From a bacterium (GTDB taxonomy: Bacteria; Margulisbacteria; Marinamargulisbacteria; JABGVJ01), in the NCBI GenBank assembly GCA_018646105.1, contig JABGVJ010000020.1, positions 1 through 43,558 on the forward strand: DNA of 43,558 nt. The letters run 5' to 3'. How positions within the stretch are numbered: position 1 is the first letter of the stretch; each line of letters starts with the position of its first letter. Shown here one piece after another: positions 14,413 to 43,558 of the stretch. Below the pieces are notes generated by a model. The model did not search any database. It worked only from the letters and a program-made list of their open reading frames with translations, and was not told the DNA's origin. The position numbers were made by a program, and so were the translations under genes.

Positions 14413-15855
14413 TTAAAAATTTCTAGTTCCAAATACGAGTGCTGTGTAAGTATAAATATCGGCTGTACCATCTTGCCAACAAGTTTGTGGTAAACCTGAT
14501 TTGTGTTCGCAAAGACTGTTCATCATTTGCGATCTGTCCCAATTTTGTTCTGGTGCGACCTGAGGCAAATAAGTTCCTCCCTGAGCATTGAGCTGGATGA
14601 AAACGCCATGTTTTCCAGGAATAATTTCTAAAGGGTCGCTAATTTTTTTACGCGCAGAAAGGATAGATATTTCGATGTCTAATTTTGTAACTTCTTCCTG
14701 GGTTAAAGGATTAAATCTAGGATCTTCAAAAGCTGATGATAGTGCCATTTGAGATACTAATTCATAAAGTGGCTGGGTTGGTTCAAAATTGCCGATACAG
14801 CCTCTGAGCTGCCCTTGTTTTTTGAGCGTAACAAAAACGCCGTAAGTAGTTTTTAAGGCGGGTGAGATCTGAAAATTTTTGAAATCTATTTTTTGATCTA
14901 AGAAATGTTTTTGTAAAGTTTCTTTTACTATGTTTAAAAGAGTTTGTTTGTCTGACTTATTTAAATATGGCGTATCGTAAAATTTTTCTTCAGCATCACT
15001 ATAATAAACTAAAGCCCCGTAACCAACGACTTGTGATTTGTCCCCAAAAGGAAAATCGCCGGAATTGCTATAATGTAAGAGTTCTGCTTGATGAAGATTA
15101 AGTTTTTGTGCTAAATATAAGCCGCTTAAAATAGCATTTTCGCCACAAGCAAAACAAGGACAGTTTGGAGGGGGATTTTGGCCTAGGTCTTGAAGTTTGG
15201 TTTTGAAGATATCTGGGTCACCTGAAAGTGCTGCTTTAATCGTTTCTTGATCAACTTTGATCGCATCCTCATATGTTGGGTAATGAGAAAAATCAGAAGA
15301 AATGATGATAAGATCGTCTGGAGTGATAACTTTATAAAGATAGTCAGCTAAGCTTTCCGCTTCTTGTGCGCTACTGAGTAGACAAGGGATGATTTGGATA
15401 TTATCGGGAAATATATATTTGATAAAAGGAAGTTGCATTTCCAGACTATTTTCATTTTGATGTGCTGTAGGAACAAAAGTAAATTGTGGGTCAATTTTTA
15501 ATAAATAATTTACGATATCTTGATTTACTTTGATATTGCCTAGCGGGGTTTCATATTGCTGGTAATTACCAATAGAAACACCGGGGAAACCCATGAAATG
15601 CGAAATACCAATCAGGAAAATGTTGCGATATTGATGTGTAGCAGCAGCTTTATATGCATAAGCTGCGGTAGGTCCGCCAAAAGCAAGTCCGGGATGCGGA
15701 ACTACAATCATTCTGGGTTTAGACGTTTCTTTTAAAGCAGGTACTTGGTCTAGGTGTTTTTGCAAAGTATTAGCCAATTCCTGAGCATCGGCAGAATACC
15801 AGGATCCTGCTTTGGCTGGTTTGCGAATATTTAATTGGTTATGATTAAAAAACAT
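14413..15855 (-). CDS. AmmeMemoRadiSam system protein B (MEMO1) - protein A (AMMECR1) fusion
   Basis: N-terminal IRKPAKAGSWY, VPH, ISH, SLEMQLPF, SSDFSHY, CG and VVGY. C-terminal GVFVTL, LRGCIG, DPRF, IEISILS and LPQVA. Start placed at ATG 15855, which has an AGGAG RBS; the longer ORF runs into a repeat. Confidence 0.9.
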   Translation of the reverse strand: MFFNHNQLNIRKPAKAGSWYSADAQELANTLQKHLDQVPALKETSKPRMIVVPHPGLAFGGPTAAYAYKAAATHQYRNIFLIGISHFMGFPGVSIGNYQQYETPLGNIKVNQDIVNYLLKIDPQFTFVPTAHQNENSLEMQLPFIKYIFPDNIQIIPCLLSSAQEAESLADYLYKVITPDDLIIISSDFSHYPTYEDAIKVDQETIKAALSGDPDIFKTKLQDLGQNPPPNCPCFACGENAILSGLYLAQKLNLHQAELLHYSNSGDFPFGDKSQVVGYGALVYYSDAEEKFYDTPYLNKSDKQTLLNIVKETLQKHFLDQKIDFKNFQISPALKTTYGVFVTLKKQGQLRGCIGNFEPTQPLYELVSQMALSSAFEDPRFNPLTQEEVTKLDIEISILSARKKISDPLEIIPGKHGVFIQLNAQGGTYLPQVAPEQNWDRSQMMNSLCEHKSGLPQTCWQDGTADIYTYTALVFGTRNF

Positions 15856-15872
15856 CTGATTAGCTCCTATTT

Positions 15873-15956
15873 TAGGCCTCACCCCTCCTACGCTTTTCAA
15901 GCTTCTGAGGGCAGGCCCTCCCCCTCTCCATAAATGTAGAGGGGCTTAAGTTACTT
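15873..15956 (+). repeat. REP-like short element interrupted by a 29-bp insert
   Basis: TAGGCCTCACCCCT [CCTACGCTTTTCAAGCTTCTGAGGGCAGG] CCCTCCCCCTCTCCATAAATGTAGAGGGGCTTAAGTTACTT. The 3' part matches the copy at 17816. Confidence 0.85.
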
Positions 15957-17872: not shown

Positions 17873-19348
17873 TTAGATATACAGGTCCCTAGTACCGGAT
17901 TTGATTTTTTCGTAATTATTCAGCATAGAAGCATATAGTTCCGGGGAGTATTTAGAGGGGACTTGGGCTTTTACTTCTGCGATTTCTTGAGCAATGAGTT
18001 TCTCCCCTATTTTTTTAGTTTGGGGCGAGGCAAAGTCGTCTAGCCATTCACGAAATGTAAGGATTGCATTGATTTTGCAAAAATGACTTTCTTGCCCGCA
18101 TTTGAGCATATCCATAATTTTTTCACCGGTACGACCACAGCGATATCCAGAAGTGCAAAAAGAGGTAATATAGCCCATCTCGGCTAATTCCCGGACTACA
18201 GTGTCTAGGTCTCTGGGATCACCTATGGTGAATTGTTGACTATTCATTTTTTGTTTTTTGGCAAGCTTAGCATAGTCCCCAATACCGATTTTGGTTGAGG
18301 CGTCGGTTTGGGTACAGCCTAAGGATAAAGCTTGTTTTTTGATTTGGTCTTTTTCTCTAGCGGTGATGATCATTCCTGTATAGGGAACAGATAATCTGAT
18401 GATAGTGACGAGTTTTTTAAAATCTGTGTCTGACACTTCATGTTGCGGATGCGAGGCAGGGGCGTTTTGAGCAGGAGTGAGACGTGGAAAAGAAATGGTA
18501 TGGGGACCCACTCCAAATTTGTTTTCCAGCTCAATAGCATGATATAAAAGTCCCATAACTTCAAACCGCCAGTCATAGAGGCCAAAAAGAGCACCAATAG
18601 CTACATCATCAATACCCGCTTCAAAAGCACGGTGTAGTGCATACAAACGCCATTGATAATTACCTTTGATAGTGTCTTGCGGATGCATTTTTTGATAAGT
18701 TTCGTGATGATACGTTTCCTGAAAAACTTGATAAGTACCAATCCCAGCTTTTTTTAGAAGTTTGAGATCTGCTACGGACATAGGTGCTGCATTGACATTG
18801 ACCCGGCGGATATTTCCAAAGCCGTGTTTGGTTTTTTCTTTGACGCTGTAAATCGTTTTGATCGTGTCAACCATATAATGAATGTCAGAAGATGGATGTT
18901 CACCATAAACCGCAATAATTCTTTTATGCCCTATTTTGCCAGCTATAGCCTGAGTTTCAGCACGTACTTGTTCTAAAGTAAGCTGGTTTCTTTTTAGGTC
19001 TTTGTTATCTCTTCTAAAGCCACAATATAAACAGTTGTTTAGGCAATGGTTAGAACAATACAGAGGAGCAAAAGTAACAATACGGTTATCATAGACTTTT
19101 TTTTTGATTTCGTCTGCGGCTACAAACATTTCTTGCCAGAGGTCTGGGTCCTGGACATTGATGAGGGTGGCGGTTTCGTCAGGGGTGAGGGTTTTGATAG
19201 CCAGGGATTTTTGGATAATAGCGCGGACTTTAGTTTTGTCTGGTTGTATATGAGCCTTGATTTGCTGCCATATTTTATGGTCATCAATAAAGTCTTGATG
19301 GTTTTTTAAATATTTTTCATATTCTGCTTTTTTTATAATAGGTTGCAT
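17873..19348 (-). CDS. hydG: [FeFe]-hydrogenase H-cluster radical SAM maturase HydG
   Basis: FAPLY, CLNNCLYC, IRRVNVN, GIGTYQVFQETYH, GVGPHTISFPR, VPYTGMI, C-terminal CTSGYRC-x19-C auxiliary cluster motif, and GTRDLY. Confidence 0.92.
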   Translation of the reverse strand: MQPIIKKAEYEKYLKNHQDFIDDHKIWQQIKAHIQPDKTKVRAIIQKSLAIKTLTPDETATLINVQDPDLWQEMFVAADEIKKKVYDNRIVTFAPLYCSNHCLNNCLYCGFRRDNKDLKRNQLTLEQVRAETQAIAGKIGHKRIIAVYGEHPSSDIHYMVDTIKTIYSVKEKTKHGFGNIRRVNVNAAPMSVADLKLLKKAGIGTYQVFQETYHHETYQKMHPQDTIKGNYQWRLYALHRAFEAGIDDVAIGALFGLYDWRFEVMGLLYHAIELENKFGVGPHTISFPRLTPAQNAPASHPQHEVSDTDFKKLVTIIRLSVPYTGMIITAREKDQIKKQALSLGCTQTDASTKIGIGDYAKLAKKQKMNSQQFTIGDPRDLDTVVRELAEMGYITSFCTSGYRCGRTGEKIMDMLKCGQESHFCKINAILTFREWLDDFASPQTKKIGEKLIAQEIAEVKAQVPSKYSPELYASMLNNYEKIKSGTRDLYI

Positions 19349-19562: not shown

Positions 19563-20294
19563 ATGGGAGGGGTAAGGTTGCTGAAGAAGGTTGTAAGTTT
19601 AAGGCTTAAAGATGTTACCTTTGAAACAACTTTTAGTACGATTCTAGATGCGATAGCAAAAAAAATACCACCCGAAATTTTAACCAAATTAAATGCACAA
19701 TATAGTAATGCTAGTTCAAAAGATAAACTAAAAAGGCTTTGTTTTCCTTATACGGTAGGGGTACTAGTAAACGGGACTTTACCTTCGGGTGATCAATTAC
19801 CTAGATTACAAACCATTTATGAAGCATGTGAAAAGAAATTTGATGGTTCATCTGGAATTTTACCTGAAAAATATCAAATAGAATTTGGGGTTAATGAAGA
19901 ACCTAGGTCTGTAATGGAGCCAGTTGCTAAAGAGCAAATTTATGAAGAAGTCAGGGATTTTTATAAAGAAATACAGGATAATATAACTGGTCTTCTAGCA
20001 ATGCTGATTGAAGGCTCTTTTTTGATTTTTAATCTGGCCCATGGGCCTCAAAATTGTCATTCTATAGGTTTAAAAAAAGCTGAAGACGATAAATATTTAT
20101 GGGTAGATACAAATATGAGGGATAAAAAGATGCTTATACCAAGAACTAATTTAAGGGCAGTTTTGTTTTATGTTTTTACTTTATATGCTTTGCATTATGA
20201 AAACAAACTTTCTCATTTTTGGCCTATTGGTTATTCTGCGAGAGTGACTGCTCCTAAAAAACGGATGGCAGTTGCTCTTGCGGGGGGAAAATAG
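19563..20294 (+). CDS. Orphan protein, putative YopT/C58-like papain-fold cysteine protease (paralog 1)
   Basis: RLC60FPY ... RLQT ... CH166SIGL ... LWVD182TN. Motif similarity to the 23238 and 25905 ORFs. The start may be the CTG/TTG a few codons downstream of GGGAGG. Confidence 0.6.
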   Translation: MGGVRLLKKVVSLRLKDVTFETTFSTILDAIAKKIPPEILTKLNAQYSNASSKDKLKRLCFPYTVGVLVNGTLPSGDQLPRLQTIYEACEKKFDGSSGILPEKYQIEFGVNEEPRSVMEPVAKEQIYEEVRDFYKEIQDNITGLLAMLIEGSFLIFNLAHGPQNCHSIGLKKAEDDKYLWVDTNMRDKKMLIPRTNLRAVLFYVFTLYALHYENKLSHFWPIGYSARVTAPKKRMAVALAGGK

Positions 20295-21717
20295 AGGCCC
20301 AGATTTCCTCTAAGTCTAATAAAGGACTTTGGCTTTCAATGTAACCCTGAAAAGTACTTATTAATTCTGCGGATAGTACTGGCCTATCTCCAGCAAGATA
20401 AAGGTTCATATAGGCTAAGACAAATAGTCTTAATTGATCTAAGTGGTTTTGGCTATCCAGTTGACTTGCTGTGGAACTAATTTTACTTTCTAACTGAGAT
20501 ATGGCCTCTGAAATTTTGTCGCTTGCTGTTTCTGGATTGCTAAGTTGTTTTCCTAATTCTATGGCGTTTTCCAATATATTCTCGCTATCAAATACCTCAA
20601 AAAATAGAATATTATATAAAGTAGTTAATGTTCCCCAGGTATCATCTGCTTGAGTTATGATGAATTTAGGGGATTTGATTTTCCTTTCTTTTTGTTCAAA
20701 ATATGATACGGCTCTTTGGGGAGGAACGTTTGACGTTGAGCCAAATTTAACATTTTTTATCGTGCATCCTTCTGGACGTGCTATTCCTAGATCGGCTATT
20801 TTTATTCTAAATGGGGAATGAGTACTTTGACAAACTAATAAATTAGAAGGTTTAAGGTCGGCCATTATTATTTTGCCTCTTACTTTATCATGCTCCATTT
20901 CTGATTCATGTATTTCCTGTATTCCCTTTAAGACATGGTCTACTATGGTATAAAGTAGGGCATATACTTGATCAGGGGGTGTTTTTGTATTTTCAGAGAA
21001 GCTTTGAAGCTTAGGTATTAAATTTTCGACATCACCATACTGAGCTAATTGCATGATAAGTTGCCCTGTTATGTTTCCTTCTACTCTAATTACATGGTTA
21101 GCTGTTTGAATAGCTTCAAGAGCCGTTTCTTCTGCGGGGGTTGATTGTTTTATTGCGAGAGCTGTCTTCCTTCCTGTACTATCTTGAAAAAGAGCCCTCC
21201 ACACAGGGCTTTCTTGTCCTCCCTCACCAATTATTTCTTCCATAGTAATCGTAGGAGCTTGAAGACTATAGGGTGACGACTTAAATTTAAAATGTTTTCC
21301 GCCTGGGGTTTTTTTGGGGTTTCTGTATTTACATAGTGTTGACAGCCTGGTGTATGGGGTAATGGGGCTAGCGGAGCTATCTGGTATTGCAGTCTGAGTA
21401 TCTGGCTCGTCTATCTCTAATCCTAGGATAGTTACCATTCTATTATAAATTTCTAATGGACCTGGTGGTGATGCGGCGGCTGCGATGTCTGGGGAGGTAG
21501 TATCTGTTGTTGATGTATCTTCTCCTAGAAGGCCCCAAATATCAAGATCGTCACCATCACTAGAGTCTGTAGTGCATGTAGAATCTGTAGCTTTTGTATT
21601 TGTTGTTAATGGTTCTAGGAATTGAACGACTGTCTTTCTTAAAGTTGTTGTTTTTCCAGTCATACCTGGAAATTTAGTTTTTTGTATAGCCATAATTTTT
21701 AATTTAATAAATAACAT
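20254..21717 (-). CDS. Hanks-type Ser/Thr protein kinase with long low-complexity N-terminus
   Basis: IGEGGQ glycine loop, ALAIK, MADLKPSNLL catalytic loop, IKIADLGIA, GST-x-x-x-PPQ and DTWG. Confidence 0.82.
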   Translation of the reverse strand: MLFIKLKIMAIQKTKFPGMTGKTTTLRKTVVQFLEPLTTNTKATDSTCTTDSSDGDDLDIWGLLGEDTSTTDTTSPDIAAAASPPGPLEIYNRMVTILGLEIDEPDTQTAIPDSSASPITPYTRLSTLCKYRNPKKTPGGKHFKFKSSPYSLQAPTITMEEIIGEGGQESPVWRALFQDSTGRKTALAIKQSTPAEETALEAIQTANHVIRVEGNITGQLIMQLAQYGDVENLIPKLQSFSENTKTPPDQVYALLYTIVDHVLKGIQEIHESEMEHDKVRGKIIMADLKPSNLLVCQSTHSPFRIKIADLGIARPEGCTIKNVKFGSTSNVPPQRAVSYFEQKERKIKSPKFIITQADDTWGTLTTLYNILFFEVFDSENILENAIELGKQLSNPETASDKISEAISQLESKISSTASQLDSQNHLDQLRLFVLAYMNLYLAGDRPVLSAELISTFQGYIESQSPLLDLEEIWASIFPPQEQLPSVF

Positions 21718-32191: not shown

Positions 32192-34300
32192 ATGACAGGT
32201 TTAATTGTTTTGGAAATTATTATGAGAATGAATCAAATTGAGGCGGATATGCGTACTATAAGCCGTGAGTATGCGATTGGTAATAGAGAGGTTACGCCAG
32301 AAGAATTGTTACGGATTTTAAAGCATTTTGAATTTAGGGCGAAGCGAAAAAAGCTTAAAATTCAAGAGTTGCATAAATATAATATTCCGGCGATTGTTAT
32401 TCTGAAAGATCATACTTATGCCTTGATTTTGAAAACGGATTTGGAAAAGAAAAATTGTTTATTATTTAACCCTTTAAAAAAACAAACCGAAGAAATTAGT
32501 TTTAAGGATTTTGAAAAGTTAAACAGTGATACTTTTTTGGTATTAAGTCATAAAAAAATAACCAAGCAAATTAAATTTAGTTTAAAATGGTTTTTTGAGG
32601 AAATATTAAATTATAAACCGATACTAGCTGAAATATTGTTGGGTTCTTTTTTTATTCAGTCTTTAGGATTGGTGACGCCATTATTTACCCAAGTGATTTT
32701 GGATAAAGTGATTGTGCATCGTAGTTTGACTACGTTACATGTATTAGCGGTTGCTTTTATTGTAATGGCTATTTTTGAATTTTTATTAAATATCACTAAA
32801 AACTATATTTTTATTCATACGGCAAATAAAATTGATGCAAAACTAGGAGCAAAACTAGTTAAAAAATTGTATACCCTACCCTATACTTTTTTTGAAAACC
32901 GTAAAGTGGGTAATATTATTGCGCGGGTACGGGAGCTTGATTCTATTAGGGAATTTATAACTAATAAATCTGTGACGATTTTGATTGATCTGTTATTTTC
33001 TATAGTTTTTATAGGCGTAATGCTTTTATATAGTGTGTCTTTGACGCTAGTGGTTTTGGCTTTTATGACTATTTTGGCATTGATTTATTTTTTTATGACG
33101 CCGCCGATTAGAGCTAGGTTGGAAGAGAAGTTTCAGATGGGAGCGCAATCCAATGCTTATTTGGTAGAATCCGTAACGGGCATGCAAACCGTAAAATCTC
33201 TGGCTATTGAAGGTGCGATGCAAAAGAAATGGGAGAATTTTTTAGGACAGTATATTTTAGCTAATTTTAATCTGACAAATATTTTAAATAATGCGCGAGC
33301 GGTAGCTGGGATTGTTCAAAAATTGATGACGATTTCGATTTTGTTTTTAGGGGTTAATGCCGTACTTTTAAATAAACTGACTATTGGACAGTTGATTGCT
33401 TTTAATATGTTGTCCGGGCAATTGGCACAACCGCTTTTGAGGTTGATTAATATCTGGCATGAATTACAACAAGCGCTATTGAGTGTGGATAGAATAGGAG
33501 ATATTCTGAATCATCCTATAGAAATTCAGGCTACTAAGGCTATTACTTTACCAAATTTAAAAGGTAATATACGTTTGGAAAAAGTTGCGTTTAAATATCG
33601 TTCGGACGCACCGTACGTGGTTCGGAATTTTGGTTTAGATATTAAAAAAGGGATGAGTATTGGTTTGGTGGGTCGAAGCGGTAGTGGTAAAAGTACGATA
33701 GCTAAACTATTGCAACGTTTATATATAGCTAATGACGGGCTGATTTCGGTAGATGATATAGATATTAGGCAATTAAACCCTTTTTGGCTGAGAACGCAAA
33801 TAGGGGTTGTTTTGCAGGATAATTATTTGTTTAGCGGGACTATTAAAGAAAATATTTCTTTACCTTGGCCTGAAGCTTCTATGGAAGCGATAGTGTCGGC
33901 AGCACAGATTGCCGGGGCGCATACTTTTGTTTCGGAATTACCTATGGGATATGATACCTTGGTGGGGGAACGCGGATCAGCTTTATCAGGCGGACAAAAA
34001 CAACGTGTGGCTATTGCCAGAGCACTTTTGACTAATCCTCCGATTTTGATTTTTGATGAAGCGACCAGTTCTTTGGATTTGGAATCGGAAAGAATTATTA
34101 AAGATAATTTGGCCAAAATTAAGCATAATAGAACTATGGTGATTATTGCGCATCGTTTATCTACGGTAGTGGATTGTGATTTGATCGTGGTTTTGGATAA
34201 AGGAGAAATAGTGGAGCAAGGCAGTTATAAGGAACTTTTGAAACAAAAAGGAATTTTTTATAATTTAGCTCAACAGCAGGAGATATTGGATGCTACCTAA
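32192..34300 (+). CDS. Type I secretion system ABC transporter (HlyB-like, with N-terminal C39-like domain)
   Basis: LVTPLFTQVILDKVIVHRSLTTL, RVRELDSIREF, GRSGSGKST, LSGGQKQR, IFDEATS and IIAHRLST. Confidence 0.94.
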   Translation: MTGLIVLEIIMRMNQIEADMRTISREYAIGNREVTPEELLRILKHFEFRAKRKKLKIQELHKYNIPAIVILKDHTYALILKTDLEKKNCLLFNPLKKQTEEISFKDFEKLNSDTFLVLSHKKITKQIKFSLKWFFEEILNYKPILAEILLGSFFIQSLGLVTPLFTQVILDKVIVHRSLTTLHVLAVAFIVMAIFEFLLNITKNYIFIHTANKIDAKLGAKLVKKLYTLPYTFFENRKVGNIIARVRELDSIREFITNKSVTILIDLLFSIVFIGVMLLYSVSLTLVVLAFMTILALIYFFMTPPIRARLEEKFQMGAQSNAYLVESVTGMQTVKSLAIEGAMQKKWENFLGQYILANFNLTNILNNARAVAGIVQKLMTISILFLGVNAVLLNKLTIGQLIAFNMLSGQLAQPLLRLINIWHELQQALLSVDRIGDILNHPIEIQATKAITLPNLKGNIRLEKVAFKYRSDAPYVVRNFGLDIKKGMSIGLVGRSGSGKSTIAKLLQRLYIANDGLISVDDIDIRQLNPFWLRTQIGVVLQDNYLFSGTIKENISLPWPEASMEAIVSAAQIAGAHTFVSELPMGYDTLVGERGSALSGGQKQRVAIARALLTNPPILIFDEATSSLDLESERIIKDNLAKIKHNRTMVIIAHRLSTVVDCDLIVVLDKGEIVEQGSYKELLKQKGIFYNLAQQQEILDAT

Positions 34301-35606
34301 AATTTTCAAAAAAATAGATGATGCACATGAGTTTAAGCCGCTTTTGGTAGAGATTGAGCAAAAACCAGCTGCTCCTTTAGGTAGAATGATTTTTTGGTTA
34401 ATTGTGTTTTTATTGGCTTTTTTTATTTTATGGTTATGGTTTGGCAAAGTAGATATTGTGGTAACTGGTCGCGGTAAATTGGTGCCTGCTGGTAATATTA
34501 AAATGATCCAACCTATTTCCAATGGAGTGGTGAGTAAAATTTTGATTAAAGAAGGAGATTTTGTCAAAAAAGGACAAGTATTAATTGAAATTGATCCTTC
34601 GACTACTTTGCCGGAACTAAAATTTTTGGAAGAAAAATTGGTTAAATTGGAAGTGGAAAGTTCTAGATTGGAAGCTATTATTACGCATAAAAAGTTTCGG
34701 CCTAATAAAACTAAAAAAGATTTAATCCAAACGCAAACTCAGCTGTATACAGCTACTCTGCAAGCGTTTAAGAAACAATTGGAAATTAAAAAACTGGAAC
34801 TGGGAAAAACAAAAGCAAAAAGTCAGACGGTGGAGGCTAAAATAAAGAATGTTACGGAATTATTGAAAATAGCTCAAAATAAAGAAGCACGTTTGGTATA
34901 TGTGAGTGATATTATTGCGATGGAAGAAATGGAAAAAGCGTATTTGGAAAGAATTGCTTATACCTATAATTTAGAAGAACTAGCACATGATAAGCAGGGA
35001 CTTTGGTTAGCGCAAAAGCAAGTTTTAGCGGAAATGCTTTATTTGAAAGCCGCGTTTAATAAAGAAATCTTAAAAGAATATAGTGATACTCTAAATGAAG
35101 ATTTACAATTAAAATCGAAAATTGAAGAATCCACTTTTATTAATGCTAAACAAAGAATTGTGGCGCCGGAAGCTGGATATATTAATGAGATTTTTATTTA
35201 TACCGAAGGTGGTGTGGTGAGTGGTGGGCAAAAATTGATGACTTTGGTACCTAAAGAAGCCCCATTAATTGTAAAGGTAGATATATTAAACAAAGATATT
35301 GGTTTTATCAAAATTGGAATGCCGGTTTCTGTTAAAATTGATACTTTTAATTTCCAGAAATACGGGTTAATTGAAGGTAAAGTAATTTATATTTCTAAAG
35401 ATAGTATTGAAAAGGAAAAAATAGGGATTGTTTATAATGTGGATATTGAACCAGGAAAATTGGGGTTGAAGGTAGATGGTAAAAAAACAGTTTTACAACC
35501 GGGAATGACTTTGTCAGCGGAAGTTAATATTGGGGAACGGAGAATTATTGAGTTTTTTATCTATCCTTTGGTGAAGTATTTGGATGAAGGCATGAGTGTT
35601 AGGTAG
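34290..35606 (+). CDS. HlyD family type I secretion periplasmic adaptor
   Basis: HEFKP-x-LVEIE, one transmembrane segment, NKDIGFI, DTFNFQKYG and PGMTLSAEVNIGERRIIEFF. Confidence 0.93.
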   Translation: MLPKIFKKIDDAHEFKPLLVEIEQKPAAPLGRMIFWLIVFLLAFFILWLWFGKVDIVVTGRGKLVPAGNIKMIQPISNGVVSKILIKEGDFVKKGQVLIEIDPSTTLPELKFLEEKLVKLEVESSRLEAIITHKKFRPNKTKKDLIQTQTQLYTATLQAFKKQLEIKKLELGKTKAKSQTVEAKIKNVTELLKIAQNKEARLVYVSDIIAMEEMEKAYLERIAYTYNLEELAHDKQGLWLAQKQVLAEMLYLKAAFNKEILKEYSDTLNEDLQLKSKIEESTFINAKQRIVAPEAGYINEIFIYTEGGVVSGGQKLMTLVPKEAPLIVKVDILNKDIGFIKIGMPVSVKIDTFNFQKYGLIEGKVIYISKDSIEKEKIGIVYNVDIEPGKLGLKVDGKKTVLQPGMTLSAEVNIGERRIIEFFIYPLVKYLDEGMSVR

Positions 35607-36895: not shown

Positions 36896-37369
36896 TTATA
36901 AATTTAAAAAGCTTTTTAGTTCTACTAATTTAGTAATATGTTTTTCTTCGGTTTTGATAATCATGTCTAAAGACGAATGATTATCTGGACTTACATAATT
37001 TTTGAGACCTACATAGAACAGAATCGAGTCTTTTTCGCGGGCAATAGCATACTTAATAGCTTTACTACGATCTTCTAATAAAAGCACTAAATCTTGGGAG
37101 TATTTACGTTGGTCGGCGATAAGCTCTTGGATATAAGCTTGATATTCTTGGTTTTGGGATACGCCGGGAGTTTGTTCCTTGGAAATTTCCTCAAGAAATT
37201 TTTCATAATAATTTTGATGATGTAATTCTTCTTTGGCTAATAAACTAAAAATTTGTTTCGCTTTAGGTGGATCTGTAATTTCGCTTAATTTAGTATAGAG
37301 GGTATAAGCTTCTTTTTCGCGTTCAATAGCAAAATTAATGATTTCACTTAAATAAAATATTTTAGACAT
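36896..37369 (-). CDS. Rubrerythrin/ferritin-like diiron protein
   Basis: AIEREKEA-x-x-LY ... LAKEELHH and AIAREKDSILFY ... IIKTEEKH (paired E...ExxH motifs). Confidence 0.87.
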   Translation of the reverse strand: MSKIFYLSEIINFAIEREKEAYTLYTKLSEITDPPKAKQIFSLLAKEELHHQNYYEKFLEEISKEQTPGVSQNQEYQAYIQELIADQRKYSQDLVLLLEDRSKAIKYAIAREKDSILFYVGLKNYVSPDNHSSLDMIIKTEEKHITKLVELKSFLNL

Positions 37370-37813: not shown

Positions 37814-39100
37814 TTAAAGCCCAATATCAGTAGGTGAACGGCCTAGGGATTTGAGCAAGTCTACGGTTTCCTGAACACTTTGGGCGACTTCTGCGTCAAG
37901 ACCGGCACGGTTATCATAAATATGATACAGTTTTTTATATTTTGTAGGTGTAAGATTGATCATCATGGAATTGGCGCCTGCTAAAAGACCTTGTTTTTTG
38001 GCATTTGCGTCTAGAGTTTCTAAAGCTGTGGTTACTAAAATATTGGAATTGGGATCTGCAATACGTGCTAAGGCAATGGTTTTTAAAACAAGTTCTATAG
38101 AGATTGGTGATCGTGTTGCTAAAGGCGTATTTTTACTAGGAATTAAAGGACCAAAAGAATACATGTCCGGAGCTAAAGATTTGGTGAGTAAAATATTATT
38201 TAAAATAGCTTCTTCAGAATCATCTCCAGGAAGTCCTAAAATAAAGCCTGTAGCTAAAACATATCCTATTTTACGGACATGTTTAATAAGATCAATTCTT
38301 TGGTCTAAAGTAGTAGGTGGTCGTAAGGTCTGAAACACATGCGGATTGGAAGTTTCAAATCTGATAAGAGCCGCTCTTGCTCCTGCTATATATAATTTTT
38401 CGTAAGTTTCTTTGCTCCTGGATCCAATACTAATAAAAACTAAAACCCCTATTTTTTTTACTTTACGCACAATTTCTGCCAATATTTCATCTGTATAATA
38501 ATAATCTTCGCCGGATTGTAAAACCAAAGCTTTGAAATCAAAATCTTTTACGGCTTTTTTAGCTGCTTGTACAATCTCGTTAATACTCATACGGTATCTG
38601 GGTATTTTTTGTTCCTGACGAATACCACAATAAAAACAGGAGTTTTGACAATAATTAGAAAATTCAATAATGCCATGCACGCAGCTAGCATTACCATGTT
38701 CACGTTGTCTGATATGATTAGCAATTTCATAAAGTACGCTTAATTCAGCAGGATTATTTAGTTTGGCTATGGTTAAAAGCTCTTCTTTTTTTAAACTTTT
38801 TTGCAAGTTAACTTTTTGTAAAACAGCTAAAAGATTGGCGGGAATTTTATCCTGATCTAGTTTAGATAAAGAAGCATCTACTTTTTTTAATTCAAAAAAG
38901 ATATCTTCAAAAACTTTGAGTATTTTTTTGGCTTCAGAAGCTGGTATTTTGCGTACAAACACGCCGCCTTGCGCATATACGTAGTCACCGACTTTAACCT
39001 TGGTATCATCAAGTAAGATATTTCTTTTTTCACCATAATAATCAATTATGGCTTTGGGGTATTTAATTTCAATTATTTGAGCTGGTATGGCATAACACAT
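37814..39100 (-). CDS. HypC - HydE-like radical SAM fusion protein
   Basis: Residues ~1-70, MCYAIPAQI...VKVGDYVYAQGG...EAKKIL, are HypC/HupF-like. The remainder has GIIEFSNYCQNSCFYCGIR, LQSGED, RFET, GLPG, GPLIP-x-x-x-TPL, TTALETL and GAN-x-x-M-x-NLTP...YHIYDNR, which are HydE/PylB-type. Confidence 0.88.
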   Translation of the reverse strand: MCYAIPAQIIEIKYPKAIIDYYGEKRNILLDDTKVKVGDYVYAQGGVFVRKIPASEAKKILKVFEDIFFELKKVDASLSKLDQDKIPANLLAVLQKVNLQKSLKKEELLTIAKLNNPAELSVLYEIANHIRQREHGNASCVHGIIEFSNYCQNSCFYCGIRQEQKIPRYRMSINEIVQAAKKAVKDFDFKALVLQSGEDYYYTDEILAEIVRKVKKIGVLVFISIGSRSKETYEKLYIAGARAALIRFETSNPHVFQTLRPPTTLDQRIDLIKHVRKIGYVLATGFILGLPGDDSEEAILNNILLTKSLAPDMYSFGPLIPSKNTPLATRSPISIELVLKTIALARIADPNSNILVTTALETLDANAKKQGLLAGANSMMINLTPTKYKKLYHIYDNRAGLDAEVAQSVQETVDLLKSLGRSPTDIGL

Positions 39101-39567
39101 TTCAATCTCATTTCTAATGTTTTTTTTATTATCTTAATTACTTCTGAGATTTTGTCATTTATTACTTTACTTAGACCTTCTCCAAAAGAGATATCTTGCG
39201 GTTGGATGCCTATAATCTGAATTTTGGTTTTGATGTCTAGTTCTTTTACTAATTTTAGTACTTCTGCCAAACCAAAACCATGTGTGGACAGAGAGTCATT
39301 TTTTATTTTCAGCTGCACTTCTGCTGGTGAAAAACAAACAATTTCTCCAGCTGGTTTGCCCATATTTACGGCATCAATAAGGATAACTTGAGTATATTCT
39401 TTAATATAATCTATTAAAGTAAGACCGTCAGTACCACCGTCTAGCAAATCAGCCTCTATTTCCTTTTGCGTTTGCAAAAGTTTGATAATATAGGGGCCAA
39501 TACCATCATCTTTACGATATGGATTACCTACCCCAATAATAAGAACTTTATTATTCGAATTCGACAT
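39073..39567 (-). CDS. Hydrogenase maturation protease (HycI/HybD family)
   Basis: IGVGNPYRKDDGIG, DGGT, IDAV, STHG and GIQP. Confidence 0.93.
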   Translation of the reverse strand: MSNSNNKVLIIGVGNPYRKDDGIGPYIIKLLQTQKEIEADLLDGGTDGLTLIDYIKEYTQVILIDAVNMGKPAGEIVCFSPAEVQLKIKNDSLSTHGFGLAEVLKLVKELDIKTKIQIIGIQPQDISFGEGLSKVINDKISEVIKIIKKTLEMRLKCVMPYQLK

Positions 39568-40840
39568 TCAAAATATGTGCTGAACAAGAAATGCAAGGGT
39601 CATAAGCTCTTACCAACATTTCTAACATTAAACTGATATCTTCTTTACTTTTATCTAAAATTGTAGGAACTAAAGCTCTGAAATCATCTTCAATATTTTG
39701 GAGATTTTGTCCTGTTGGAATAATACAATTGGCTTTTTGGATATAACCTTGATCATTGTAGACATAATCATGAAAAAGAATACCTCTAGGTACTTCTACG
39801 GCACCAATACCGCGGCCAGGTTTGATGGTAAATTTACGGTTTTCCAATTCAACCCCGTTATCTAATAAGGATTGTGCAGCTTTGATACCTTCATCTGCCA
39901 AATGAAAAAGCTCGACAAATTGAGCGATGGTAATCATATATGGATTGTAGCAAGGAGCTTTTAAGCCTAAATCTGCGGCAATAGTTTTAGCATCTTCACT
40001 TAACCATTGATGATTGTTATTAAATCTGGCTAGGGCTCCTACCATATAGGATTTACGATTATGTTTGGCGCGTTTAGCTGTAGAATGATCTACTAAATAT
40101 TCGTTCGTAATATCCAAATAGTTTTTGTAAGATGTTTCTCCTATATCAGAAGAATAAATATTACCTTCCAAGAAAGCATATTCTCCATATTTATATAAGG
40201 AAATATATTCTGTTTCACGTTCAAAATTCGGGATGATAAAAGTTTTGAGAATTCCGATATCTTTTTTTAGTTCGGTTTTGGCTTCTTCTAGTCTATGGAT
40301 AATATCGTGTAATATTTCCGGAGTGGGTATTTTAGTCATGGCTTTGACACGCATAGCTGTGGGGTGAATCAAACGACCACCGATCATATTGCCTATTTCA
40401 TGGCCTAGTTTTTTGAGCTTTAAAGCGCGAACAACTACATCTTTATGGGTATTCACTAAAGGAAGTACACTTTTGGCGCCAGCAAAGTCTGGGACCGCTA
40501 GAAAATAAATATGTAATACATGACTTTCATAATGCTCACCAATATTCATTAGACAACGAAGATTTTTTTCTTGCTCTGAAATTTTAATACCAAAAGCATC
40601 TTCTGAAGCAGTTAAACTACCTAACACATGGCCTACAGAACAAATACCGCAAATACGACTGGTAATCAGAGCAGATTCATCATAATGCCGGTTTTTAAGC
40701 ATGGCCTCAAAAAAACGAGGTGCTTCCACTATTTCTAATTTACATTCTTTTAGTTCGCCACTTTGGACATCTATTTTAATATTGCCATGTCCTTCTACTC
40801 TAGTAATATGTTGAATATCTATTTTGACATCTTTACTCAT
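39551..40840 (-). CDS. Group 3b [NiFe]-hydrogenase (sulfhydrogenase) large (alpha) subunit
   Basis: TRVEGHG, PRFFE, L1 motif RICGIC, EVPRG, and L2 motif DPCISCSAH followed by a 7-aa cleavable tail. Confidence 0.94.
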   Translation of the reverse strand: MSKDVKIDIQHITRVEGHGNIKIDVQSGELKECKLEIVEAPRFFEAMLKNRHYDESALITSRICGICSVGHVLGSLTASEDAFGIKISEQEKNLRCLMNIGEHYESHVLHIYFLAVPDFAGAKSVLPLVNTHKDVVVRALKLKKLGHEIGNMIGGRLIHPTAMRVKAMTKIPTPEILHDIIHRLEEAKTELKKDIGILKTFIIPNFERETEYISLYKYGEYAFLEGNIYSSDIGETSYKNYLDITNEYLVDHSTAKRAKHNRKSYMVGALARFNNNHQWLSEDAKTIAADLGLKAPCYNPYMITIAQFVELFHLADEGIKAAQSLLDNGVELENRKFTIKPGRGIGAVEVPRGILFHDYVYNDQGYIQKANCIIPTGQNLQNIEDDFRALVPTILDKSKEDISLMLEMLVRAYDPCISCSAHILNVEFE

Positions 40841-41586
40841 TTTGGGAAAACCTCCTTATTTCTTTCTAAAAACAGCTTAAATTTATCCATCATTTTTTCA
40901 TATGTAAGATTATATTTTTGTATAATATCTTTTTGTGAATGAAGGTTGGGTTCTGTAATTAAACCGCGACAGCCAAAACAATAACCTCCGTTACTGGGGC
41001 AACGAGCATCACAGCCAGCTCTAATCACCGGCCCCAAACATTGCATTCCTAGCTCATAAACACATACATTTTCATTTTTTTTACATTCCATACATACAGG
41101 GTAGTCTGGTAAACCAGGTTTTTTACCTAAAACCAGGTTTTTGACAACTTTTATAAATTCATTGGTATCAATGGGACAACCTGGAATAAAGGCATCTACT
41201 TGTACTACTTCACTAATAGCTCTGGCATGGCTAGTTTCGTATTTTTGTGGGGCGGTAGGATATACTGCTTCTTGATATTCATCTTTAGTTTGAAAGTTTT
41301 TCAAGGCATTAATGCCTCCGATATGCGCACATGCGCCTAAAGCAATTAAGATTTTTGCTTTATCTCTGATTTTTTGTAAACGAGGTATATCGGATTCGCG
41401 CGTAATAGAACCTTCGATAATGGCAATATCAAAAGTATCGGCTTTTTCACTAATAGCTTCTCTAAATTCGACAATATCGATAACATTTAAAAGATCTAAT
41501 AGTTGTTCGGGATGTAAATCTAAAACACATAGTTGACACCCTTCACAAGAAGCAAAGTCAAAAAAAGCAACTTTAGGCTTGGACAT
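40837..41586 (-). CDS. Group 3b [NiFe]-hydrogenase small (delta) subunit
   Basis: SCEGCQ, EGS, GACA-x-x-GG, IPGCP, VCMEC, CLGPV-x-x-AGC-x-x-x-CP and CFGCRG. Confidence 0.93.
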   Translation of the reverse strand: MSKPKVAFFDFASCEGCQLCVLDLHPEQLLDLLNVIDIVEFREAISEKADTFDIAIIEGSITRESDIPRLQKIRDKAKILIALGACAHIGGINALKNFQTKDEYQEAVYPTAPQKYETSHARAISEVVQVDAFIPGCPIDTNEFIKVVKNLVLGKKPGLPDYPVCMECKKNENVCVYELGMQCLGPVIRAGCDARCPSNGGYCFGCRGLITEPNLHSQKDIIQKYNLTYEKMMDKFKLFLERNKEVFPK

Positions 41587-41588
41587 TT

Positions 41589-42449
41589 TTATAATACCTC
41601 CTCTTTCTGATAAACATCTTCATAATTAAAAACTGGACCTTCCTGGCAAACATAAACTCCATCCATTTGACAGTGTCCACATTTACCAACTCCACATTTC
41701 ATTCTACGTTCCAAAGACATATAAATATTTTTTTTAGGTATATCTTTTTCCATTAAAGAGATTAAAACAAACTTATACATAATAGGCGGACCTACAATAA
41801 CGGCAATGGTTTTAGCGGGGTCAAATTTTACTTTAGGAATTAAAGTTGTGATAACTCCTTGATTGCCAGTCCAATCTGTATCAGCATGATCTACGGTTTC
41901 CAAAAATTCGATATTAGAGCCCATAGCTTTGATTTTGGTTAATTCATCTTGATACATTCTTTCTTTCGGTGTTTTACAACCATACAAAATTGAGATTTTT
42001 TGATATTTTTGAGGACTTTTTAAAACTTTGTTAATTAAAGATCTTAGAGGAACATAACCAATTCCGCCGGCAATAAATAAAAGATGTTTACCTTGCATTT
42101 TTGCTAAAATCTGATCATCAAAACCATGTCCAAACGGGCCTCGAATAAATATTTCGTCCCCTACTTTTAAAGTATGCAGCTTGTTGGTGACATTACCAAC
42201 AGCACGTACGCAAAGATCAAAAAAATGATCTGAACTCGGAGGAGAAGAAATAGAAATAGGCGCTTCGCCAATACCTAAAATAGAAAGTTGTACAAATTGG
42301 CCTGGAACATGTCCTAAGGATTTTTGACTAACTAGCTCTAATTTAAAAAATTTCTCTTTTTCTGTGAAAGTTTTAATTTCTACAATTCGGGCTTTTTCCG
42401 GGATGTATAGGTTTTCGTCTTTATTTTTGAGTTTTAATTCTTTACACAT
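41589..42449 (-). CDS. Sulfhydrogenase gamma subunit (FAD/NAD(P)-binding, 2Fe-2S)
   Basis: PGQF, GEAPISISS, RGPFG, AGGIG, GPPIM and ERRMKCGVGKCGHC...VC-x-EGPVF. Confidence 0.92.
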   Translation of the reverse strand: MCKELKLKNKDENLYIPEKARIVEIKTFTEKEKFFKLELVSQKSLGHVPGQFVQLSILGIGEAPISISSPPSSDHFFDLCVRAVGNVTNKLHTLKVGDEIFIRGPFGHGFDDQILAKMQGKHLLFIAGGIGYVPLRSLINKVLKSPQKYQKISILYGCKTPKERMYQDELTKIKAMGSNIEFLETVDHADTDWTGNQGVITTLIPKVKFDPAKTIAVIVGPPIMYKFVLISLMEKDIPKKNIYMSLERRMKCGVGKCGHCQMDGVYVCQEGPVFNYEDVYQKEEVL

Positions 42450-42466
42450 TATTTGGTTCCTTCCTG

Positions 42467-43495
42467 TTATTCTTGTTCACCTGTTAATACTTTAACAATT
42501 AATTTAGGGTTAATGTCTGCTAAGCAGGCGCGAACACATCTGCCACAACCTACACAAACTGCCTGCCCATGTTTTTTCATCAAATAGTTAAACTTTCGGT
42601 TAAGACGATGTTTCAATCTGTTTTCTGCCTTATCTCGAAAATTTTCGCCGCCAGCGACTTCGGCAAAAGAACTGAGCATACAAGCATCCCAACGTCGTAA
42701 TCTTTCACCTTTTTGTAAATTCAAAGCAAATTCATCTGCTACGTCAAAACAATAACAAGTCGGACATACCATGATACAAGAACCACAACTTAAGCATTTG
42801 GATCCTTTTTCTTTCCAGATAACATGATTTTGATTTTTTGAAAAAATTTCTGGTAATTTATCTAAATCTCTAAAAGGGGCAACCAGGCTAAAAGATTTTT
42901 TTTTGGCAGCTTGATACTTGGTTAAGGCCTGTTCGCTGCCAGGACTGCTTTGTAAATATTCTTGAGCGAATTTTTTACCTTTGTCCGTAATAATAGTAAG
43001 TGCAAACTCTAATCCTAAGTCATGTAAAAAAAGGTCAGCTCCTTTAGTGGAATTTTGAGATTTTACACGGTAACAAAAAGCATTTTCGTCACATAGTTTT
43101 TCACAATCTAGGCCAATAACAAGACTATTTTCTTTTTTAGCCAGATAATTGGGGTCGCCTTTACTTTCGGCAAAAGCTTCATTTAAAATATGAATGCCAT
43201 TAACATCACAAGGTCTGATTCCAAAAAGTATCGTAGGTTTCGTTTCGCTTTTAGGCGTAACTTCACCGTCTGCTGTATATTCGAACAAAACTTCTTCTTT
43301 GGGAAAAAAGAATTTTTTAGGGGAGAGTACGGTCGGATGGTATTTGAAAATTATTTCTTTGCTCTTTTGGATATAATCATACAAATAATTTTCACCTTTT
43401 TTCTTTAAAGCTATTAAATCGTATTTTTGAATAGTTTTTTCTAAATTTTCTAAAAGTATTTTTTTATCTATTTTTAAACTAGAATTTAGGGACAT
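42467..43495 (-). CDS. Sulfhydrogenase beta subunit (4Fe-4S dicluster)
   Basis: FGIRPCD, CLSCGSCIMVCPTCYCF, RRWDAC and CVGCGRCVRAC. Start placed at ATG 43495 behind AGAAAGG. Confidence 0.9.
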   Translation of the reverse strand: MSLNSSLKIDKKILLENLEKTIQKYDLIALKKKGENYLYDYIQKSKEIIFKYHPTVLSPKKFFFPKEEVLFEYTADGEVTPKSETKPTILFGIRPCDVNGIHILNEAFAESKGDPNYLAKKENSLVIGLDCEKLCDENAFCYRVKSQNSTKGADLFLHDLGLEFALTIITDKGKKFAQEYLQSSPGSEQALTKYQAAKKKSFSLVAPFRDLDKLPEIFSKNQNHVIWKEKGSKCLSCGSCIMVCPTCYCFDVADEFALNLQKGERLRRWDACMLSSFAEVAGGENFRDKAENRLKHRLNRKFNYLMKKHGQAVCVGCGRCVRACLADINPKLIVKVLTGEQE

Positions 43496-43558
43496 ATTTT
43501 TAACCTTTCTTTGTTTTTTTATTTTTAATTTTATTTTCAAGCCAATCTATCCAGGCAG

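Follow-up and report, generated by a model that had tools for sequence, protein, structure and literature searches.

In the canonical Hyp pathway, the Fe(CN)2CO unit of [NiFe] hydrogenases is made by HypC, HypD, HypE and HypF and nickel is added by HypA and HypB; a cysteine of HypD ligates the iron together with Cys2 of HypC. HypX is an aerobic source of CO for [NiFe] sites and acts alongside HypCDEF, while in green algae a HydEF fusion protein joins two of the maturases of [FeFe] hydrogenases. In the literature, HypCDEF is treated as the conserved route to the Fe(CN)2CO of [NiFe] hydrogenases (PMC9431212), HydE, HydF and HydG are regarded as serving [FeFe] enzymes in a system of their own, unrelated to the first (PMC9431212, PMC8454700), and many archaea with [FeFe] enzymes are reported to lack HydEFG (PMC11216029). 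Here we describe a gene, hypC::hydE, that closes a [NiFe] hydrogenase operon on a 43,558-nucleotide stretch of DNA from a marinamargulisbacterial genome (contig JABGVJ010000020.1 of assembly GCA_018646105.1, analyzed over its whole length and called the window below). We consider it probable that its product, a fusion of HypC with a HydE-type enzyme, is the core of a hybrid [NiFe] maturation pathway that operates without HypD, HypE and HypF. All parts of this pathway come from known families, and the pathway itself crosses two systems held to be separate. The fusion, its two domains and the hydG gene of the window are located as follows:

37814..39100, minus strand: hypC::hydE fusion gene, 428 amino acids (open reading frame and translation, Pfam, NCBIfam, AlphaFold2 model)
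38909..39100, minus strand: HypC domain, residues 1-64 (PF01455; alignment to 2z1c, 3vyr and 3d3r)
37841..38821, minus strand: HydE-type radical S-adenosylmethionine (SAM) domain, residues ~94-420 (TIGR03956, alignment to Thermotoga maritima HydE [TmHydE], Foldseek)
17873..19348, minus strand: hydG, variant subtype (TIGR03955, 465 bits, cut-off of 312; alignment to 4wcx)

The initial annotation of the window, made from the sequence alone, had described one continuous open reading frame (ORF) of 428 amino acids joining a HypC-like to a HydE-like domain, and the ORF, Pfam and NCBIfam all bear this out. The protein begins with MCYAIPAQ and contains KVKVGDYVYAQGG; Cys2, the iron ligand of HypC, directly follows the initiator methionine, so that the canonical Hyp system and the fusion share a HypC domain with an N-terminal cysteine. 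The Pfam model HupF_HypC covers residues 1-64 (48.8 bits, cut-off of 28.5), Radical_SAM covers residues 145-297, and BATS covers residues 319-420. The best NCBIfam match was HydE (TIGR03956, residues 94-420, 258.0 bits, cut-off of 254.6), with PylB (143 bits) and BioB (104 bits) as runners-up, and the radical SAM motif CX3CX2C is formed by C151, C155 and C158. An AlphaFold2 model of the whole fusion, built on 67 family sequences, reached a predicted local distance difference test score of 91.4 and a predicted template modeling (TM) score of 0.91. In Foldseek comparisons its radical SAM part matched TmHydE with target TM scores of 0.89-0.95 and a root-mean-square deviation (rmsd) of 1.6-2.0 Å. 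A complex prediction of the hydrogenase large subunit with fusion residues 1-80 scored 0.21 against a mark of 0.32, which we count neither way on binding.

To place the fusion in a family, we searched a database of 5.8 billion proteins, which gave 1,457 hits among 8,000 scored proteins, and examined the best 120 clusters, one of which is the window's own protein. Each of these best 120 of the 1,457 hits aligns with 99-100% of the query (57-69% identity) and has the two Pfam domains; hence, the fusion is a true gene and not an assembly artefact. The combination of HypC with a radical SAM domain is thus found well beyond one assembly, in 119 further clusters and in 30 distinct genomes (see below), and depositors have labeled its members as, among others, Gammaproteobacteria, Margulisbacteria, Patescibacteria and Omnitrophica. 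Of the 121 family sequences, 120 retain Cys2, as do all 29 fused proteins taken from genomic loci and all 13 of the longer proteins described next, and several linker residues are invariant across the 121 family sequences. All 121 also carry a glutamine at position 44, which aligns with the histidine of the three solved HypC proteins (2z1c, 3vyr and 3d3r), a position in the HypC barrel that we take to be His51 of Escherichia coli HypC; this invariant glutamine sets the fusion apart from the canonical Hyp system.

A search limited to proteins of 750-2140 amino acids returned 13 proteins of 805-946 amino acids that span 100% of the fusion at 45-64% identity. Ten of these were scanned, and all ten combine, in one chain, HypC (residues 1-76), HydE (310-364 bits, cut-off of 254.6) and HydG (384-631 bits, cut-off of 312); the HydG part is truncated in one of the ten, P0133. 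All 13 begin with MCY[AS]IP, and they share most of the residues discussed below for the fusion family (C2, C140, H142, R242 and M380 in 13/13, Q44 and M313 in 12/13), with Phe (9/13) or Cys (4/13) at position 222. Two carry taxonomic labels, Nitrospirae and Omnitrophota. These natural HypC-HydE-HydG chains show that HydG is physically tied to HypC-HydE and, as far as domain architecture can tell, they lend decisive Rosetta-stone support to a predicted functional link between them. The green-algal HydEF protein is a precedent for the covalent fusion of successive hydrogenase maturases; the difference is that the present proteins attach a chaperone of [NiFe] enzymes to maturases of the [FeFe] type, with both HydE and HydG present in the 13 long ones.

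Contig C45, which is the window, belongs to a 1.56-Mb genome in 120 contigs (90% complete, 1.3% contamination) that we inventoried by profile searches over all six frames. These searches gave no match to HypD, HypE or HydA (PF02906), a best HypF score of 24.9 bits against a cut-off of 466, and nothing above 87 bits for HydF (cut-off of 326), the latter matches being generic GTPases. The fusion was the only match to HypC and likewise the only match to HydE, and a single HydG gene was found, namely, the one in the window. The intact hydG reported there by the initial annotation was thereby confirmed.

We then compared two sets of genomes. The first, from a scan of species genomes, comprises 14 fusion loci in 13 further genomes, and the second comprises the window's genome and its 100 nearest relatives (101 genomes); as G022 of the second set is G004 of the first, there are 30 distinct fusion genomes altogether. 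In the second set, a full-length fusion was present in 18 of 101 genomes (44-65% identity, 11 coded families; this count includes G109, whose fusion is split by contig ends) and HypD in 10 of 101 (135-508 bits, 6 coded families), and no genome held both; one family, f39, contains one genome of each kind. HypD exceeded the cut-off in none of the 30 fusion genomes, among them two single-contig genomes and several that are 98-100% complete, and neither HypE nor HypF did so in any of the 14 tested for them (the window's and the 13 of the first set). This is the pattern expected from the initial annotation, which had proposed that HypD, HypE and HypF are replaced. The fusion genomes therefore differ from those with the canonical Hyp system in lacking HypD (30 genomes) and HypE and HypF (14 tested) and in having HypC fused to a radical SAM enzyme, and the cyanide of the fusion system cannot derive from carbamoyl phosphate via HypF and HypE. 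HypX is similar in that it, too, changes the source of a diatomic ligand of the [NiFe] iron, but it acts with HypCDEF, whereas the fusion system is without HypD, HypE and HypF.

If HypD, HypE and HypF had merely been missed, because the metagenome-assembled genomes are incomplete or the proteins are divergent, the fusion could be an accessory to an ordinary Hyp pathway. The incompleteness and fragmentation of the window's genome would leave room for this, as would the fact that completeness is not given for G001-G013. However, the same search that found no HypD in 30 fusion genomes detected it in 4 of 14 control genomes and in the 10 HypD-bearing relatives, which belong to the same phylum, and a short contig carrying hypA and hypB joins the hydrogenase operon and not a set of hidden hyp genes (see below). 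We therefore regard this explanation as extremely improbable.

In contrast to HypD, HydG was found above the cut-off in 27 of the 30 fusion genomes (12 of 14 when the window's genome is counted with the first set, the exceptions being G007 and G010, and 17 of 18 in the second set, the exception being G072), compared with 21 of 83 relatives without the fusion. The co-occurrence of fusion and HydG that follows from the hybrid scheme is thus borne out. HydA and HydF exceeded their cut-offs in 5 and 3 of the 13 first-set genomes and, likewise, in 5 and 3 of the 19 fusion genomes tested overall; 7 of the first 14 genomes, including the window's, hold HydG with neither of them. Among the fusion genomes with no standalone HydE match, the five best assembled (G085 and G073, which are single contigs, G076 in 4 contigs, G068 and G094) all gave no HydA and no HydF. 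Together with the window's genome, in which neither was found, this agrees with the absence of hydA and hydF on which the initial annotation had built. The [NiFe] large-subunit family was above the cut-off in 13/13 first-set genomes, where some matches may be NuoD of complex I. Judged from these distributions, HydG and the fusion appear to replace HypD, HypE and HypF in many anaerobic bacteria.

The similarity to the HydG-HydE-HydF system is clear, in that HydG and the HydE-fold domain both exceed curated cut-offs and the SAM cluster and the equivalents of TmHydE Met224 and Met291 are kept, and one might ask whether the fusion serves [FeFe] maturation, its HypC-like domain substituting for HydF as a carrier. 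Both radical SAM partners do score as [FeFe]-type maturases, and HydA is encoded in 5 of the 19 fusion genomes tested. On the other hand, HydA is absent from the other 14, including two single-contig genomes, and HydF, like HydA, is missing from most carriers of the fusion. Standalone HydE is present in the HydA-bearing fusion genomes where looked at (in G006 and G011 it adjoins hydF/hydG), so that genomes with HydA or HydF keep a separate HydE of the canonical clade. The fusion itself is in an operon with [NiFe] subunits, HypA, HypB and a [NiFe] protease. A role in [FeFe] maturation is very unlikely on these grounds.

For TmHydE, PMC11826987 describes M224 and M291 as hosting the Fe(I)(CO)2(CN)S intermediate, K309 as part of the radical relay, L157 and V105 as lining the cavity, and R54, T134, R155 and T269 as contacting the CN ligands. 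We mapped these residues onto the fusion by alignment, with the SAM cysteines fixing the numbering, and compared 29 fused with 16 standalone HydE proteins from the same phylum, leaving out the N-terminally cut protein of G005 and the split one of G109. Identical in all 45 are the SAM cysteines, M313 (M224 in TmHydE), M380 (M291), the pair T357/T358 (T268/T269), V193 (V105), L245 (L157) and E249. The two types differ without exception at position 142 (R54), which is His in 29/29 fused versus Arg in 16/16 standalone proteins, at position 222 (T134; Phe in 29/29 versus Thr in 16/16) and at positions 242-243 (D154-R155; Arg-Gly/Ala in 29/29 versus Asp-Arg in 16/16). Position 140 (H52) is Cys in 29/29 fused proteins and Tyr, Leu, His or Phe in standalone ones. 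Three of the four CN-contacting residues are accordingly changed (R54H, T134F and R155G/A), with T269 alone retained, and the cysteines of the C-terminal accessory cluster of TmHydE are absent from the fusion in the alignment. In short, the fusion has the CX3CX2C motif and the Fe(I)-binding methionine equivalents of a HydE, but three of its four CN contacts are changed and most of its carriers are without the usual company of HydA and HydF. The fused HydE can be read as having its iron-handling core intact and its ligand-contact shell systematically remodeled, and the changed contacts would fit a product other than the [2Fe] dimer.

A tree of the 45 sequences (FastTree, LG+gamma, 331 columns, midpoint root) separates fused from standalone HydE with a support of 1.0, and each of the five genomes with both forms (G018, G072, G079, G083 and G004/G022) has one copy per clade. 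This suggests that the fused HydE domain, a clade apart from the HydE of the HydG-HydE-HydF system with a Cys140 of its own, is an old paralogue.

The altered CN contacts, together with the marginal score against the HydE model, could also be taken to mean that the radical SAM domain has nothing to do with iron ligands and instead modifies the large subunit or serves another cofactor, the linkage to HypC and HydG being only regulatory. Yet none of the 45 sequences departs from the Fe(I)-binding methionines, the T268/T269 pair or the residues lining the hydrophobic cavity, and the model fits the forms of TmHydE with bound complex B at an rmsd of 1.6-1.7 Å. Moreover, genomes without HypE and HypF still need a maker of CO and CN, and HydG is fused to this same protein. 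We give such an unrelated function very little credence.

The genes around the fusion in the window are the following, in the order of the operon, with the gene downstream of the fusion last:

43500..43556, minus strand: 3' end of hypB, cut by the end of window and contig (ending in ...AWIDWLENKIKNKKTKKG and a stop; read from the sequence, matches HypB of contig C106)
42467..43540, minus strand: beta subunit, 4Fe-4S dicluster (PF17179; sulfhydrogenase beta models)
41589..42449, minus strand: gamma subunit, FAD/NAD-binding, Fe-S (PF00175, PF10418, PF00970; sulfhydrogenase gamma models)
40837..41586, minus strand: hydrogenase small subunit delta (PF01058; sulfhydrogenase delta models)
39551..40840, minus strand: [NiFe] large subunit alpha, group 3b type (PF00374; sulfhydrogenase alpha models; PDB matches)
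39073..39567, minus strand: [NiFe] hydrogenase maturation endopeptidase (PF01750, 88.8 bits; TIGR00072, 132.9 bits)
36896..37369, minus strand: rubrerythrin-like gene (PF02915; synteny)

The order beta-gamma-delta-alpha-protease-fusion given by the initial annotation holds, with all genes on the minus strand, as does the 28-bp overlap between the fusion (37814-39100) and protease (39073-39567) genes. The beta subunit probably starts at the ATG at 43495 (MSLNSSLKID...). The large subunit carries the motifs RICGICSVGH and DPCISCSAH and a short C-terminal tail, and it aligns end to end with the sulfhydrogenase alpha subunits of Pyrococcus and Thermococcus; its best PDB matches are those of sulfhydrogenase 1 alpha, 9nez and 5yxy, at 224.7 bits. 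Among NCBIfam models, all four structural subunits match those of sulfhydrogenases (group 3b) best, and none of the four reaches the equivalog cut-off (e.g., 245 versus 700 for alpha). The operon thus has the large-subunit cysteine motifs and the alpha, beta, gamma and delta subunits by which group 3b is recognized. The client is, as in the canonical Hyp system, a [NiFe] large subunit with canonical cysteine motifs.

A 2.1-kb contig of the same genome, C106, encodes a rex-like protein, HypA (115.5 bits), HypB (249.8 bits) and the start of the beta subunit, and its end is nearly identical to that of the window (window 43380-43558 versus L017 1-2103). The HypB C terminus at the window end, taken together with this match, places hypA and hypB directly upstream of the operon, and the full operon, as pieced together from the two contigs, is rex-hypA-hypB-beta-gamma-delta-alpha-protease-hypC::hydE. 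HypA, HypB and the endopeptidase, which belong to the canonical Hyp system, are therefore present and encoded beside the hydrogenase, as they are there. The statement of the initial annotation that the window contains no hypA, B, D, E or F and no hydA or hydF has to be amended for hypB, whose C terminus lies at 43500-43556, whereas for HypD, HypE, HypF, HydA and HydF it holds genome-wide. A hidden hypCDEF cluster beside hypAB at the contig break was ruled out, since C106 runs into the beta gene and matches the window end. The two contig ends differ slightly (...AWINWL... in HypB of C106 versus ...AWIDWL... in the window, and MPLNSS... versus MSLNSS... in the beta subunit), and the break itself is probably due to strain variation or a second near-identical copy.

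The arrangement recurs in relatives. The order (hypA-hypB-)beta-gamma-delta-alpha-protease-fusion was present in 9 of the 14 first-set loci and the order of 3b hydrogenase, protease and fusion was repeated in G068 and G082; altogether, the window and 11 other fetched loci show it, with variations. At L028 the structural genes are divergent from the fusion, and four loci have no hydrogenase within the fetched stretch. A rubrerythrin gene often follows the protease and the fusion, and the rubrerythrin-like gene near the fusion recurs in 7 genomes by synteny. Between protease and fusion, 8 genomes encode a His-rich membrane protein (DsbD_2, 29.8 bits) that we infer to be a nickel transporter. Examples are L021 9281-10000 and L029 9206-9997; in the window it is absent from this place, where the protease and fusion genes overlap. 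G007 holds two fusion copies (L026 and L029), which share 65% and 63% identity with the window's protein; one lies ~4.6 kb downstream of a 3b operon and the other has no hydrogenase nearby. The membrane protein keeps its place before the second, hydrogenase-free copy, and this genome has no HydG above the cut-off.

The association is not confined to group 3b. The fusion of the closed genome G085 stands at the head of a ~17-kb cluster that continues with Fer4_22 and FAD/NAD subunits, a molybdopterin oxidoreductase, a ferredoxin and a TPR protein, followed by a NuoH-like membrane subunit, a small subunit and a Complex1_49kDa/[NiFe] large subunit with the motifs ERICGICSTSH and DPCYCCTER, and then by Mrp antiporter subunits, a further ferredoxin and adjacent hypA and hydG genes. 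By this gene order, the fusion and hydG bracket a group 4-like [NiFe] hydrogenase. Its genes lie at L062 11453-18989 and L063 1977-5121 and include sulfhydrogenase-like beta and gamma subunits; the enzyme has the appearance of an unusually composed group 4 hydrogenase that translocates ions and is linked to formate or NAD(P)H. hypA also adjoins hydG in G108 and G097, where the fusion likewise stands ahead of a similar hydrogenase cluster. The tie to group 3b hydrogenases proposed in the initial annotation is thus real for the window's operon and other loci but not exclusive. Elsewhere, hydG overlaps the end of the fusion gene (L032) or lies 4-25 kb from it on the same contig (six genomes).

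When 557 ORFs from the surroundings of the fusion and of hydG in the fetched loci were clustered without preselection, the recurrent neighbors were hydrogenase subunits, protease, HypA, rubrerythrin, the His-rich membrane protein, RibD, kinases and a cytidylyltransferase, and among these 557 ORFs there was no recurrent unrecognized neighbor able to replace HypD. In six genomes (G068, G073, G079, G094, G105 and G108; e.g., L064 8704-9795), the fusion has RibD as its immediate neighbor, and Ser/Thr kinase genes recur nearby; this neighborhood probably reflects synteny within the lineage and has no functional meaning. In G078, a relative with HypD (L075 7825-10691), hypD is followed by a gene for a 565-amino-acid protein with formyltransferase and enoyl-CoA hydratase parts, a HypX-like architecture, and the fetched stretch shows no hypC next to hypD.

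The HydG of the window can be aligned from end to end with the solved T. italicus HydG (4wcx, 464 bits) and has the N-terminal CX3CX2C motif (CLNNCLYCG). At its C terminus it carries FCTSGYRC...KC...FC (C-x5-C) instead of the C-x2-C-x22-C motif of the auxiliary cluster, which, like the missing accessory-cluster cysteines of the fusion, is a difference from the HydG-HydE-HydF system. The C-x5-C form, FCT[SA]GYRC, was found in 4 of 33 HydG proteins compared, which cluster together (that of the window, the hypA-adjacent copy of G085 and second copies in G083 and G084; L063 5458-6957, L097 and L099 outside the window), while the remaining 29, which come mostly from fusion genomes, have the canonical motif. 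The C-x5-C form also occurs in 4 of the 12 complete triple fusions (P0127, P0130, P0132 and P0134), and the triple fusions with this form have Cys instead of Phe at HydE position 222. We considered the motif as a lineage-wide adaptation to the fusion, which is ruled out by the 29 canonical proteins and by the G084 copy (G084b), which comes from a genome in which no fusion was found; this indicates that C-x5-C marks a real subtype that is not required for the system.

The window's hydG adjoins an alanine racemase gene on one side and unannotated ORFs on the other. The window as a whole has a GC content of ~35%, and its other genes include a Memo-AMMECR1 fusion protein (14413-15900, minus strand), a 487-amino-acid ORF with a weak protein kinase match (20254-21717, minus strand) and a type I secretion pair of a C39-peptidase ABC transporter and an HlyD-family protein (32192-35606, plus strand). 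Four short contigs (144-249 nucleotides) from one marine metatranscriptome run of one study map to the alpha and beta genes (window 39688-39936 and 42418-43236) with 0-6 differences, and none from this run, whose library may contain DNA, maps to the fusion, protease, delta or gamma gene. The organism of the window or a very close relative was hence present in a marine RNA library.

How the parts might work together can be outlined as follows. HydG would cleave tyrosine and build an Fe-carbonyl-cyanide unit on its C-terminal cluster, as for [FeFe] enzymes, and the HydE-type domain of the fusion would take up this unit. There it would yield or hold a mononuclear iron unit instead of the [2Fe] dimer, in the scaffold role of HypD; a mononuclear product is expected because the CN-contact shell is remodeled and the Cys140/His142 pair is invariant. 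This pair, located on the strand of TmHydE R54, may ligate the mononuclear iron in a way similar to the HypD cysteine that acts with Cys2 of HypC. The attached HypC domain would then receive the iron unit on its Cys2 and insert it into the large subunit, after which nickel would be added by HypA and HypB and the C terminus trimmed by the protease of the operon.

A more modest version is that HydG and the fusion supply only CO and/or CN, with the iron unit built on another scaffold or on the large subunit itself. They would then replace HypE, HypF and the anaerobic source of CO, and the HydE domain would be no substitute for HypD. Such a partial replacement would sit well with the stoichiometry of the HydG product, which mismatches the [NiFe] site, and with the release of free CO and CN by HydG reported in PMC9431212. 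Nevertheless, the clustering of 557 ORFs revealed no recurrent unknown gene, and the covalent HypC-HydE(-HydG) linkage favors direct hand-over, so we consider partial replacement unlikely. Going beyond the core proposal of a hybrid pathway, we lean, by a small margin, toward the view that HydG, the HydE paralogue and HypC make up a third route that is sufficient by itself, in which all CO and CN would come from tyrosine, without carbamoyl phosphate, HypD, HypE or HypF, and the HydE barrel would act as the scaffold through Cys140/His142. This route would serve hydrogenases of groups 3b and 4 under at least six lineage labels, maybe with a non-standard CO/CN count or a new ligand-exchange step.

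Several observations weigh against the hybrid pathway and have to be set beside the evidence in its favor. On the chemical side, the known HydG product carries 2 CO and 1 CN and the [NiFe] iron site 1 CO and 2 CN, a mismatch for which the steps outlined above, all of them inferred, do not account. The fusion itself scores slightly below the cut-off of the NCBIfam HypC model (TIGR00074, 44.6 versus 48 bits), exceeds that of the HydE model by only a small margin, and lacks the conserved histidine of the HypC barrel. As for the distribution, HydG is below the cut-off in three fusion genomes (G007 and G010, for which completeness is not given, and G072, which is 75% complete); it is also common without the fusion, including in 8 of the 10 genomes with HypD, and in the five HydA-bearing fusion genomes it could serve the [FeFe] enzyme alone. 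The HypE and HypF counts span 14 of the 30 fusion genomes, and related genomes are non-independent samples. Finally, in G073 and G076 the fusion stands among housekeeping genes such as those for RibD and ATP synthase. Even so, comparative genomics supports the hybrid model of the initial annotation, and the model would, in extended form, also cover group 4-like enzymes.

We found no description of a HypC-HydE fusion or of HydG-dependent [NiFe] maturation in the literature searched, the scope of which excluded most subscription journals and supplements, and neither is described in the accessible parts of PMC11216029, PMC9431212, PMC11826987, PMC9324843 and PMC12727194. If the hybrid pathway is real, the maturation of [NiFe] and [FeFe] hydrogenases would share chemistry and parts, and the anaerobic source of CO for [NiFe] sites in these lineages would be tyrosine via HydG. 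HydE would have a second natural function, which could be compared with the first residue by residue. The presence of HydE and HydG would no longer imply an [FeFe] enzyme, nor would missing HypD, HypE and HypF imply an inactive [NiFe] enzyme, and surveys in which the type or activity of hydrogenases is read from the maturases of a genome would need revision. In its most compact form, the triple fusion, such a one- or two-gene module for the iron unit could simplify the heterologous production of [NiFe] hydrogenases.

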